From sequence record NC_054906.1: DNA of 64,000 nt; one strand, 5' to 3'. Position numbers and translations under genes: made by a program. The number at the start of each line of letters is the position of its first letter. The first letter of the stretch is position 1. Positions 5,807 to 55,524 of the stretch are shown piece after piece. Source of the DNA: Enterobacteria phage RB18. The notes under the pieces are model-generated. The model was given only the letters and a program-made list of their open reading frames with translations, ran no database searches and was not told the DNA's origin.

Positions 5807-6088
5807 TTAATTAAACATTGGAGCGATACGTTTCAGAAGAGTAGCAGCACCTTTAGCGAATTTTACATCATGAAAAACAGTTTCTTCTTCTGTAACAACT
5901 CGAACTTTAATATTTTCACAATCCCAATTTTTACGAACAATCTTCAAAAGCTGCAGTAAATCTTTACATTCAGCAATATCGATAACACATCCACGAGAAT
6001 CTTCCATTATCGCACGATAACCGTAAGCCATACCATAATCGTTAAAAGATTGCTCGATGATAATTAAGTTTTCCATTTTATTCTCCAA
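5807..6088 (-). CDS. hypothetical protein
   Basis: 93-aa ORF with GGAG RBS. Confidence 0.5.
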   Translation of the reverse strand: MENKMENLIIIEQSFNDYGMAYGYRAIMEDSRGCVIDIAECKDLLQLLKIVRKNWDCENIKVRVVTEEETVFHDVKFAKGAATLLKRIAPMFN

Positions 6089-6105
6089 GTTGTTTTCTGT
6101 AACAG

Positions 6106-6141
6106 TAGTTGATATTGATATAGTACCATAATCAACTACTG
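6106..6141. repeat. 11-bp perfect inverted repeat (cagtagttgat / atcaactactg)
   Basis: read directly; 14-nt loop; lies in the leader of the 5807..6088 ORF. Confidence 0.5.
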
Positions 6142-6173
6142 ATGTATATAGTTTTATGAAAAAAATTTAAACT

Positions 6174-15091: not shown

Positions 15092-15121
15092 ATTATACCA
15101 TACTCATTTTGGAAAGTAAAC
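15092..15121 (-). promoter_or_regulatory. early promoter (GTTTAC-18-TATAAT)
   Basis: minus-strand consensus just after the soc terminator. Confidence 0.5.
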
Positions 15122-15135
15122 CATTTAAATGAAAA

Positions 15136-15157
15136 AAGGACTCCCGAAGGAGTCCTT
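15136..15157 (-). terminator. intrinsic terminator, UUCG hairpin plus U-tract
   Basis: aaggactcc-cgaa-ggagtcctt; minus strand follows with TTTTTTC; directly after soc. Confidence 0.6.
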
Positions 15158-24275: not shown

Positions 24276-24425
24276 TCAATTGATACATTCATATTTAACT
24301 TGTAACAGTAATAAACCCCAACCTAAAATAATAGTTGGAATCATAAGAGGAACCGTTACACTATAGTATATACTTATTATAATCATCAAGATTAAAAGCA
24401 ATGCTGCTATAATTTTGCTTTTCAT
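24276..24425 (-). CDS. small hydrophobic membrane protein (49 aa), absent from the ORF track
   Basis: ATGA overlap with the imm stop; MKSKIIAALLLILMIIISIYYSVTVPLMIPTIILGWGLLLLQ. Confidence 0.4.
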   Translation of the reverse strand: MKSKIIAALLLILMIIISIYYSVTVPLMIPTIILGWGLLLLQVKYECIN

Positions 24426-25071: not shown

Positions 25072-25302
25072 TCAAATGCAAGTAGTAATTACTCCAGTAG
25101 TGCTTACACAGGTATTACCTAATTGAACACCCAGCGTTCCATTAGTATTCATATGAAGATTATCATCAATTTTTGTTGATACTTTACCATTCATGTGAAT
25201 AACAGTATTAGATTCAATCACATTCTGAGTATCATTTTCAATAAATGGAACAGTTGCTAATGCAACTAAACACACTGCTAAGCAACCATAAACAATTTTC
25301 AT
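25072..25302 (-). CDS. small secreted protein
   Basis: 76 aa from the internal ATG (GGAG RBS); signal peptide; leader is a copy of the repeated promoter cassette. Confidence 0.5.
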   Translation of the reverse strand: MKIVYGCLAVCLVALATVPFIENDTQNVIESNTVIHMNGKVSTKIDDNLHMNTNGTLGVQLGNTCVSTTGVITTCI

Positions 25303-25336
25303 TTTATTCTCCAAATCCGTATCAGTTGATAGTTGT

Positions 25337-25366
25337 ATAGTACCACAGAGGAACGGTCTTGTAAAC
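25337..25366 (-). promoter_or_regulatory. early promoter, repeated cassette copy A
   Basis: GTTTAC-18-TACTAT on minus strand with the conserved core gatagttgtatagtacca. Confidence 0.55.
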
Positions 25367-25450
25367 CGTTTTGTGAAAAATTTTTAATGAATCCAAAGGG
25401 TCCAGAATCATCTGTTTTTCATAAGTATAGATTTATATTACTTGTATGAA

Positions 25451-25472
25451 AAAGGGACCCGGAGGTCCCCAG
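25451..25472 (-). terminator. intrinsic terminator after gene 43
   Basis: gggacc-cgga-ggtccc hairpin; minus strand follows with TTTTTC. Confidence 0.6.
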
Positions 25473-39609: not shown

Positions 39610-39639
39610 ATAATACCACGGTTTGAACTTGTTGTAAAC
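39610..39639 (-). promoter_or_regulatory. early promoter (GTTTAC-18-TATTAT)
   Basis: minus-strand consensus after the nrdH terminator. Confidence 0.5.
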
Positions 39640-39717
39640 AACTTTGTGAAAAATATTTTAGGGAATGATAAGAAAGGAATGATAGCTTAGAATGGTAATA
39701 TACAGAATGTGAGAAAG

Positions 39718-47294: not shown

Positions 47295-47324
47295 ATTATA
47301 CCACATCCTTGTGGCAAAGTAAAC
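47295..47324 (-). promoter_or_regulatory. early promoter (GTTTAC-18-TATAAT)
   Basis: minus-strand consensus between paralogs 3 and 2. Confidence 0.5.
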
Positions 47325-50238: not shown

Positions 50239-50266
50239 TTTGTGTTCCTCCGTAGTTGATAGTTGT

Positions 50267-50296
50267 ATAGTACCACAAAGGAACAGTCTTGTAAAC
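50267..50296 (-). promoter_or_regulatory. early promoter, repeated cassette copy B
   Basis: GTTTAC-18-TACTAT with conserved core gatagttgtatagtacca. Confidence 0.55.
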
Positions 50297-50298
50297 CA

Positions 50299-50613
50299 CT
50301 AAAAGAAACTTCTTTCACAATTTTTTCCACTGAACCAAGCGCTCACTGCTTTCTTAGTCTCAGGAGCAGTGTTATCCATAAACCATTCAAAAGCAGCCTT
50401 TTTATGATTCTGGAGGGCTTCTCGGGCTTTAATCTGCTCACGGTCTATTAACACTAACATATGAGCCTTTCTTGTCACCAGGGGCTTCTTATGATTTTTT
50501 GAATATTCCCAATCATTTGTCCATCGCATCGTTGTTGCGAATTGAAGTACAGCTTCTTTAATCTTAGTTTCGTAAATTTCACGAGCCTTTGAGTATAACA
50601 TCATTACCTCCAT
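50299..50613 (-). CDS. hypothetical protein
   Basis: 104-aa ORF. Confidence 0.5.
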   Translation of the reverse strand: MEVMMLYSKAREIYETKIKEAVLQFATTMRWTNDWEYSKNHKKPLVTRKAHMLVLIDREQIKAREALQNHKKAAFEWFMDNTAPETKKAVSAWFSGKNCERSFF

Positions 50614-50702: not shown

Positions 50703-51671
50703 TTATTTCAGAAGAGTAACCTCAGCGATTTCTTCCCAACCGTTTTTGTCGGTCATAATAAAGTCAGCAAGATAAAGCGCAGTACGCAGTGAAACATTGC
50801 GTAAACGATTAACATTGACTTTCATCCATGATAATGCTTTATAAGTTTCTTCATCAGAAAGACCGCGCTTTTGCATCATGTCAGTTGAAAGAATAACATC
50901 TTCAACCCTGACCATAATTTCTTCATTAGTGTGAACACCCAAATCCAAATAAACTGAGCGGGACACTAATGCTTGTAAATGTGGAGCAAGTTTAGTACCA
51001 CGGTCTAATTCGCGGTCAATGTCAACGTTTGTGATAAAAACAATCGTTCCTTTAAATTCAAACTCACGCTCAATGCCTTTTTCTTCTAAGTAAGAAGATG
51101 CAGTGCTCCAGCAGACTTTACGGGTCTCTCCAGTGTCCAGAGCAGCTTTCAAAAGATTAAGAATATCCATATCAGAGAAAACATCCACATCATCAATCAA
51201 AAGGACAGAATTCTCTTCACGATTATTCCAGAGCTGTTCATAAAGACCGATACCAGAGATTTTACCGTTAATGCTTTTATATTCAATGTATCCAATATCA
51301 TTTGCTTTATTTAAAGCTTTATCCAAAGAATACGTTTTACCAATACCTGCCGCACCAGAGATAATTAATGAACGAATGTTTCCGTTAATAATACCATTCG
51401 TCATCATTCCCATAACATTAAATCTTTTATTAATGCGGGTTTTCATATCTTCATATGATTCTTTAACTTCTTCAACTTTTACACCATCATATGAAATGTC
51501 TGATTTGTAAACCCAAACACCGCGACGTTTACCGTCAATTTCAACAAAAACTTTACCATCTCCTTGCGCATCTACTGGAGCATTATCAGGGAACCACTCA
51601 CCTAAGAGTTCAAAAGTTCCAGAGATTTCTTTGCCAAAGTAGATACCCTTATTGATAGTTACAGTTTTCAT
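50703..51671 (-). CDS. P-loop NTPase (AAA-like ATPase)
   Basis: 322 aa from the internal ATG (GGAG RBS); Walker A GAAGIGKT, Walker B VLLIDDVD. Confidence 0.6.
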   Translation of the reverse strand: MKTVTINKGIYFGKEISGTFELLGEWFPDNAPVDAQGDGKVFVEIDGKRRGVWVYKSDISYDGVKVEEVKESYEDMKTRINKRFNVMGMMTNGIINGNIRSLIISGAAGIGKTYSLDKALNKANDIGYIEYKSINGKISGIGLYEQLWNNREENSVLLIDDVDVFSDMDILNLLKAALDTGETRKVCWSTASSYLEEKGIEREFEFKGTIVFITNVDIDRELDRGTKLAPHLQALVSRSVYLDLGVHTNEEIMVRVEDVILSTDMMQKRGLSDEETYKALSWMKVNVNRLRNVSLRTALYLADFIMTDKNGWEEIAEVTLLK

Positions 51672-51705
51672 TTTATTCTCCAAATCCGCATCAGTTGATA
51701 GTTGT

Positions 51706-51735
51706 ATAGTACCATAAAGCTTTATGCTTGTAAAC
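51706..51735 (-). promoter_or_regulatory. early promoter, repeated cassette copy C
   Basis: GTTTAC-18-TACTAT; about 45 nt of leader identical to copy A. Confidence 0.55.
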
Positions 51736-51765
51736 AACTTTGTGAAAAATTTTTGAAATAAAAAA

Positions 51766-51783
51766 GGGAGCCCGAAGGCTCCC
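51766..51783 (-). terminator. intrinsic terminator, UUCG hairpin plus U-tract
   Basis: gggagcc-cgaa-ggctccc; minus strand follows with TTTTTT; right after the nucleotidyltransferase stop. Confidence 0.65.
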
Positions 51784-51785
51784 TA

Positions 51786-55433: not shown

Positions 55434-55461
55434 GATGTTCTCCTCTTTATCCGATAGTTGT

Positions 55462-55491
55462 ATAGTACCACAGCTCAAACGGAAAGTAAAC
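55462..55491 (-). promoter_or_regulatory. early promoter, repeated cassette copy D
   Basis: GTTTAC-18-TACTAT with conserved core. Confidence 0.5.
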
Positions 55492-55506
55492 CGGTAAAAT
55501 GAAAAA

Positions 55507-55524
55507 AGTCTCCCGAAGGAGACT
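55507..55524 (-). terminator. intrinsic terminator, UUCG hairpin plus U-tract
   Basis: agtctcc-cgaa-ggagact; minus strand follows with TTTTTTC. Confidence 0.65.

Follow-up and report, generated by a model that had tools for sequence, protein, structure and literature searches.

The early promoters of bacteriophage T4 are exceptionally strong promoters of the UP/-35/TGn/-10 type, which capture the host polymerase right after infection. Their published consensus combines GTTTAC at positions -36 to -31 with an A-rich UP element, a GT-rich or TGn stretch and a -10 element (Hinton 2010, PMC2988021). Early promoters also form part of a composite element, the PeSL (promoter-early stem-loop), in which a stem-loop terminator is followed by an early promoter, a Shine-Dalgarno (SD) sequence and a start codon (Arbiol 2010, PMC2839356; Comeau 2014, PMC4122927). 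PeSLs are repeated, are enriched in hyperplastic regions and are found at indels between close relatives (PMC2839356; PMC4122927). The model was extended to the T4/PST pair, for which the consensus TTTACW-N17-TAYWAT was given (Comeau 2014, PMC4122927), and T4 recombination works on patches of less than 50 bp (Arbiol 2010, PMC2839356). Repeated promoter-like elements that flank the internal-protein genes of T-even phages were described by Repoila et al. in 1994, according to the account given by Arbiol 2010 (PMC2839356). Finally, the RegB/S1 target in T4 is GGAGRAYARAA, with GGAGAAUAAAA as its optimum; the SD of T4 nrdC.8 was found to be moderately cleaved by RegB, and a reverse-transcriptase stop seen during T4 infection was assigned to the mobD.5 promoter (Durand et al. 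2006, PMC1702504).

The window considered here is the whole stretch of DNA that was analysed, 64,000 nucleotides from Enterobacteria phage RB18 (NC_054906.1). It belongs to Tequatrovirus (T4-like) and is about 97-98% identical to slur07, G8 and G4498 over the stretches tested. Four repeated elements on its minus strand are very probably sigma-70-dependent early promoters of Tequatrovirus that would act as PeSL-type homology patches for recombination. Published work already covers these elements, the orthologues in T4 and the model of shuffling, also for T-even phages.

The repeated early promoter and its leader

The 64 kb window contains exactly four exact matches to the 18-nt core GATAGTTGTATAGTACCA, where chance would give 0.04, and five matches were reached in 0 of 100 shuffles; the invariant core that the sequence-only reading had reported at four loci is therefore real. 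Genes at all four copies lie on the minus strand. The copies, a fifth and diverged member of the family, and the features around them are as follows.

5807-6076: 89-aa ORF downstream of the fifth copy, between the motB and cef homologues
6076-6086, minus strand: GGAGAATAAAA in the leader of the fifth copy, which is of the same type as the leaders at 25.3 and 51.7 kb
6076..6150, minus strand: fifth, diverged family member; core 6111-6128 with 3 mismatches, -35 degenerate (TATACA)
25072..25302, minus strand: 76-aa ORF, predicted to be driven by copy 1
25302-25312, minus strand: GGAGAATAAAA in the leader of copy 1; putative transcription start near 25330
25303..25375, minus strand: copy 1, predicted early promoter; -35 GTTTAC 25361-25366, TGG and -10 TACTAT 25337-25345, core 25328-25345
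25453..25470, minus strand: predicted terminator hairpin after gene 43, GGGGACC-UCCG-GGUCCC and U-tract, -13.9 kcal/mol
50239..50300, minus strand: copy 2, predicted early promoter of nrdC.8; -35 50291-50296, -10 50267-50272, core 50258-50275, SD GGAGG 50247-50251
51671-51681, minus strand: GGAGAATAAAA in the leader of copy 3
51672..51740, minus strand: copy 3, predicted early promoter of nrdC.10; -35 51730-51735, -10 51706-51711, core 51697-51714
51765..51784, minus strand: predicted terminator hairpin after nrdC.11, AGGGAGCC-UUCG-GGCUCCCU and U-tract, -17.7 kcal/mol, z -4.2
55434..55491, minus strand: copy 4, predicted early promoter of mobD.5; -35 55486-55491, -10 55462-55467, core 55453-55470, SD GGAG 55440-55443
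55507..55524, minus strand: predicted terminator hairpin after rI.-1, AGUCUCC-UUCG-GGAGACU and U-tract, -10.8 kcal/mol

The make-up proposed for the elements, namely GTTTAC, 18 nt, TACTAT, a leader and a ribosome-binding site, is seen on the minus strand in all four copies, and the four intervals assigned to them accurately span the distance from the -35 hexamer to the base before the start codon. The -35 is an exact GTTTAC in each copy (in the T4 definition, positions -36 to -31 with T at -33). TACTAT follows after 18 nt and is directly preceded by TGG, forming an extended -10 (TGn and TAnnnT, 17 bp after TTTACA). Downstream come a leader, a GGAG ribosome-binding site and an ATG, the last located 34-38 nt past the -10 in every copy. 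With a start placed from the sequence about 7 nt after TACTAT, the transcribed leader would be about 28 nt long. The UP region upstream of the -35 is A/T-rich, being AAAAATTTTTCACAAA in the 25.3 and 51.7 kb copies, TTTTTTCATTTTACC in the 55.4 kb copy and GAAAGAAGTTTCTTTTAG in the 50.2 kb copy, where it lies within the end of nrdC.9, whose stop codon is 2 nt ahead of the -35. The assignment of the repeats as putative promoters is very well supported by this anatomy, from which we infer also the start sites and the promoter activity in RB18.

A generic sigma-70 scan gave no excess of sites over shuffled sequence; the search for promoters relied on the specific GTTTAC/TGn pattern. GTTTAC-N18-TAnnnT with a TGn-like motif is found at 16 minus-strand sites in the window, the four copies included, and every site examined has an ATG within about 40 nt and an SD-like sequence ahead of that ATG. 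Among these 16 early promoters only the four copies have TGGTACTATACAACTATC in common, and they use TACTAT rather than the commoner TATAAT/TATAGT. Their alignment extends far beyond the promoter hexamers: the stretch of 27 nt from TGG to ATC is identical in all four, and over the 9 nt that follow the -10 the four copies show 100% identity, compared with 34-39% among the other early promoters of the window.

The genes that follow the copies are the 76-aa ORF (and then imm.1, imm and gene 42), nrdC.8, nrdC.10 and mobD.5, and three of the four copies are located within the nrdC-tk region. Between imm and gene 42 the window also has a 49-aa hydrophobic ORF (24276-24425), in a gap that is unannotated in T4 and carries ORF042 in PST. 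In T4 the element is present at each of the four orthologous intergenic positions, with the exact core at three and one mismatch at mobD.5, and again before motA, frd.3 and ndd.6; a diverged copy between its motB and cef, at about 6609, matches the fifth copy of the window. Eight exact cores are found in G8, and the sub-family sharing TGGTACTATACAACTATC has 3-8 copies per genome. The core plus leader, 50 nt in length, gave 2368 match places in 541 records, almost all of them Tequatrovirus. In the public record of fPS-90 the orthologue of the 25.3 kb copy is annotated as 'predicted early promoter', and a terminator upstream of this site is annotated both there and in the record of G8. The T4 GenBank record lists no promoter features, and no genome-wide map of T4 start sites was found in the literature searched.

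The published optimal site for RegB/S1 cleavage lies within the leader that the copies at 25.3 and 51.7 kb have in common. The consensus GGAGRAYARAA has 3 matches in the 64 kb window, against 0.38 expected, located at 25302-25312, 51671-51681 and 6076-6086; all three are the exact optimum, and each is the ribosome-binding site right after a promoter of this sub-family. The copies at 50.2 and 55.4 kb depart from the consensus. Leaders of the four copies are unstructured and fold no better than shuffled sequence. A reading of the leaders as structured RNA elements was rejected on this ground and for want of any Rfam family reaching its gathering score anywhere in the window (1-64000).

A function as RegB/S1 site accounts, at least partly, for the block that these two copies share. 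Messages from the 25.3, 51.7 and 6.1 kb copies are expected, from their leader sequences, to be cleaved and silenced as the early period closes, so that the repeated unit would couple strong early firing to programmed message inactivation through the predicted RegB cleavage. This coupling of a promoter sub-family with an optimal RegB site is a small new detail and a modest addition to published work.

Hairpins, shared blocks and gene content in relatives

A stable, terminator-like stem-loop with a U-tract is found upstream of three of the four copies, at distances from the -35 of 86 nt (25.3 kb), 29 nt (51.7 kb) and 15 nt (55.4 kb). The fold and the U-tract predict that these are intrinsic terminators. 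It had been proposed that three copies sit next to UUCG hairpins; three hairpins are indeed present, but only those at 51.7 and 55.4 kb have a UUCG loop, while that at 25.3 kb has UCCG and is the distant one. The 50.2 kb copy has no stem-loop (folding z-score +0.24). Predicted terminators are located within 100 nt upstream of 5 of the 16 early promoters of the window. The terminator-promoter arrangement is encountered also outside the family, for example at promoter 15121. These layouts support a PeSL architecture for three of the four copies, and the TTTACA-N17-TACTAT of the window fits the PST/T4 PeSL consensus. The four sites and the diverged fifth are predicted to mark the starts of transcription units, and the three hairpins unit ends, in an otherwise unannotated genome.

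Copies of the element share different blocks with different partners. Between those at 25.3 and 51.7 kb, 34 of 35 nt agree downstream of the -10 (background 13.1 +/- 4.5), and upstream the agreement is 29 of 46 nt (background 15.8 +/- 3.5). The claim that they have about 45 nt of leader in common thus stands as to the sharing, but not as to the leader, since about 17 nt of the block lie upstream of the putative start. The copies at 25.3 and 50.2 kb have 13 of 15 spacer nt in common (background 5.2 +/- 2.3). Comparable combinations are found across genomes: the upstream half of the T4 frd.3 promoter is of the nrdC.10 type, the spacer of T4 nrdC.8 is that of the 25.3 kb copy of the window, and a metagenomic phage (L018) carries a motA-type upstream half ahead of another gene. 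Block mosaicism of this kind would be caused by recombination.

Sharing also reaches beyond the four copies. The 55.4 kb copy (promoter 55491) and promoter 15121 have a UUCG hairpin, a T-tract and the -35 flank in common (15092-15157; 55462-55524) and are otherwise unrelated. The spacers of promoters 2447 and 47324 agree in 14 of 15 nt (2418-2447; 47295-47324), and promoters 39639 and 51735 share a UP block (39610-39660; 51706-51760). Because pairwise block sharing is found among other early promoters, modular mosaicism appears to be general and not special to the four copies. In one relative (IMG/VR contig UViG_2974787500_000001), two family promoters (L016, 3284-3301, and L029, 2819-2836) are without T-tract, UP region and -35. 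In these deletions the upstream hairpin, intact in L016 and truncated in L029, is joined directly to TGGTACTAT, and the extended -10 alone remains of the promoter.

Flanking gene content varies among relatives at two of the four loci (25.3 and 51.7 kb), with junctions inside the element. At the other two, nrdC.9/nrdC.8 (50.2 kb) and rI.-1/mobD.5 (55.4 kb), no flank variation was found in about 497 Tequatrovirus genomes, and the expectation that flanking genes differ between related phages is borne out for one half of the loci and fails for the other.

Of 523 records, 316 carry the 76-aa ORF at the 25.3 kb locus. It is missing from T4, T6, PST and others; in T4, T6 and PST the same promoter and leader abut imm.1 directly. 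The 8-bp repeat ATGAAAAT, located at the start codons, flanks this indel, and an ordinary microhomology deletion would also explain it. The ORF occurs a single time in each of 324 phage records; every row with comparable coordinates places it in the gene 43/imm.1 region, so that nothing points to a second locus. Its product (25072-25302) has a hydrophobic N-terminus and belongs to PHROG 4189, whose function is unassigned; protein identity among carriers is only about 80-98%, below that of the neighbouring genes.

At the 51.7 kb locus, no fewer than three kinds of insert separate the nrdC.11 terminator from nrdC.10 in relatives. The insert of ESh36 and G3F6 comprises a 49-aa ORF, a DUF4031 gene and an additional GTTTAC-N18-TACTAT promoter; that of G2133 brings a 161-aa ORF, a promoter for this ORF and a second terminator; and in Aplg8 there is an open frame, without annotation and about 60 codons long, which likewise has its own promoter. 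The sequence of G3F6 departs from the window right past ...ACAACTATCAA, and the same insert in ESh36 is joined at ATGAAAAT. Equivalents of the G2133 insert before nrdC.10 (L032, 791-1276) are encountered in HMD-9 and EP01, where they are annotated, in the records only, as RNA polymerase ADP-ribosylase or NAD-protein ADP-ribosyltransferase. If that annotation is true, an Alt/Mod-like gene would be riding in a promoter-terminator cassette.

Under the PeSL model, recombination between copies would give deletions or mini-circles. The hybrid junction that a crossover of the neighbouring copies at 51.7 and 50.2 kb would leave after deletion was searched for in 50,697 phage records, with a query built from these two copies, and was found in 0 of 724 records. 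Taken together, the comparative evidence at two loci and the block mosaicism support a role of the elements in recombination, without demonstrating it. The original suggestion, that promoter plus stem-loop units of the T4 type serve as recombination substrates, is thus supported by three PeSL composites among the four copies and by differing gene content at two loci. The sites mark where the gene content of relatives most likely differs.

According to the mechanism proposed, each repeat would be a ready-made expression cassette, consisting of UP region, -35 GTTTAC, TGn and TACTAT, a leader of about 28 nt, a GGAG SD and a start codon. Host RNA polymerase would fire from the four promoters right after infection, and at three copies the upstream intrinsic terminator would insulate the unit from the preceding gene. 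Where the RegB/S1 site doubles as ribosome-binding site (25.3, 51.7 and 6.1 kb), a burst of expression would be followed by inactivation of the message. Since the copies have blocks of 20-55 nt in common, they may serve as homology patches for the phage recombination system, by which blocks would be swapped between copies, and cassettes with their own promoter gained or lost at these sites.

Alternative explanations

Part of the core could be held constant by selection alone, acting in favour of a very strong promoter and ribosome-binding site, and the elements would then have no part in recombination. The -35 and TGn/-10 are indeed common to all 16 early promoters of the window, the leader block shared by two copies coincides with the RegB/S1 site, and two loci are syntenically invariant, with the predicted deletion product not observed. 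Such selection is nevertheless unlikely to be the whole explanation: the core conserves TACTAT and the 9 nt after the -10, which the other early promoters do not; spacer and UP blocks that have no known sequence requirement are shared between pairs of copies and across loci in different genomes; and gene replacements in relatives begin at the end of the core.

It was also considered that the TGGTACTATACAACTATC sub-family forms a distinct regulatory class, in which a factor reads the -10 and the first transcribed bases and which spreads together with the optimal RegB site. Such a factor might contribute to early-promoter shut-off or Alt-dependent stimulation, or influence which nucleotide initiates transcription. 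The class would then amount to a mobile module for expression in a burst followed by silence, a prospect to which we attach little probability.

A simpler form of the same idea takes the invariant core ACAACTATC, that is, the -10 hexamer and the first transcribed bases, as the site of a phage or host regulator, for example of one that shuts off early promoters, a mechanism described in a review as not completely understood (Hinton 2010, PMC2988021). Identity over 18-27 nt, seen at as many as 8 loci of one genome and in hundreds of genomes, speaks for such a site, as does the recurrence of CTATCAA after other -10 variants. Yet no protein is known to bind ACAACTATC, most early promoters of the same temporal class are without the motif, and the T4 mobD.5 copy has a mismatch inside it; common descent with gene conversion, moreover, accounts for the identity without a regulator, and the proposal is decidedly improbable.

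Insertion of promoter-bearing cassettes at the same intergenic site in different relatives invites comparison with integrons, an analogy raised by Arbiol 2010 (PMC2839356), with the repeats as attachment sites of a site-specific system that has a dedicated recombinase. This is very improbable, as the positions of the junctions differ (core end, leader, ATGAAAAT), no dedicated recombinase was identified in either PeSL paper (PMC2839356; PMC4122927), and T4 recombination manages with patches shorter than 50 bp.

That the repeats, which are direct repeats in the same orientation ahead of ORFs, are remnants of segmental duplications in which genes were copied along with their upstream regions is scarcely credible, because the downstream proteins are unrelated (no BLASTP match below E = 0.1; different PHROG families) and similarity among the copies ends within 11 nt past the ATG. 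Gene duplication was rejected for the upstream proteins as well, which are likewise unrelated.

Compared with the PeSL reading, explanations by constraint, a regulator, an integron-like system or duplication are less likely or add nothing. The value of the finding lies mainly in annotation, and it leaves the current understanding of T4 biology unchanged.

Comparison with described systems

The window copies have the same GTTTAC, TGn, TAnnnT, UP region and early-gene position as the early promoters of T4 (Liebig and Rueger; Wilkens and Rueger; Hinton 2010, PMC2988021), and they are the orthologues of the imm.1, nrdC.8, nrdC.10 and mobD.5 promoters. There is no essential difference between the two sets, the window copies representing a TACTAT sub-family with 9 further nucleotides in common. 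At the site of the T4 imm.1 promoter, the extra 76-aa ORF comes first in RB18.

As in the RegB/S1 sites of T4 early mRNAs, the exact 11-nt optimum is found as the SD region in the leaders at 25.3, 51.7 and 6.1 kb. RegB/S1 sites need single-stranded RNA, and the leaders of the window are likewise unstructured. The copies at 50.2 and 55.4 kb differ from the T4 consensus.

The elements of Repoila 1994, as far as they are summarized by Arbiol 2010, are likewise early promoters of the T4 type, accompanied by weak A/T-rich stem-loops and flanking highly variable small genes; that account places them at a different locus, the ip genes.

Comparison with PeSLs shows that not every copy fits the composite, as the 50.2 kb copy is without a stem-loop and 86 nt separate the 25.3 kb hairpin from the -35, and two loci of the window (50.2 and 55.4 kb) are without plasticity. 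The stems of RB49 PeSLs are polyG/polyC, whereas those of the window are of the T-even type, with UUCG or UCCG tetraloops. In common with PeSLs, three of the four copies have the composite layout; the element is repeated and concentrated in the nrdC to tk hyperplastic region, and at two loci it adjoins indels and gene replacements in relatives.
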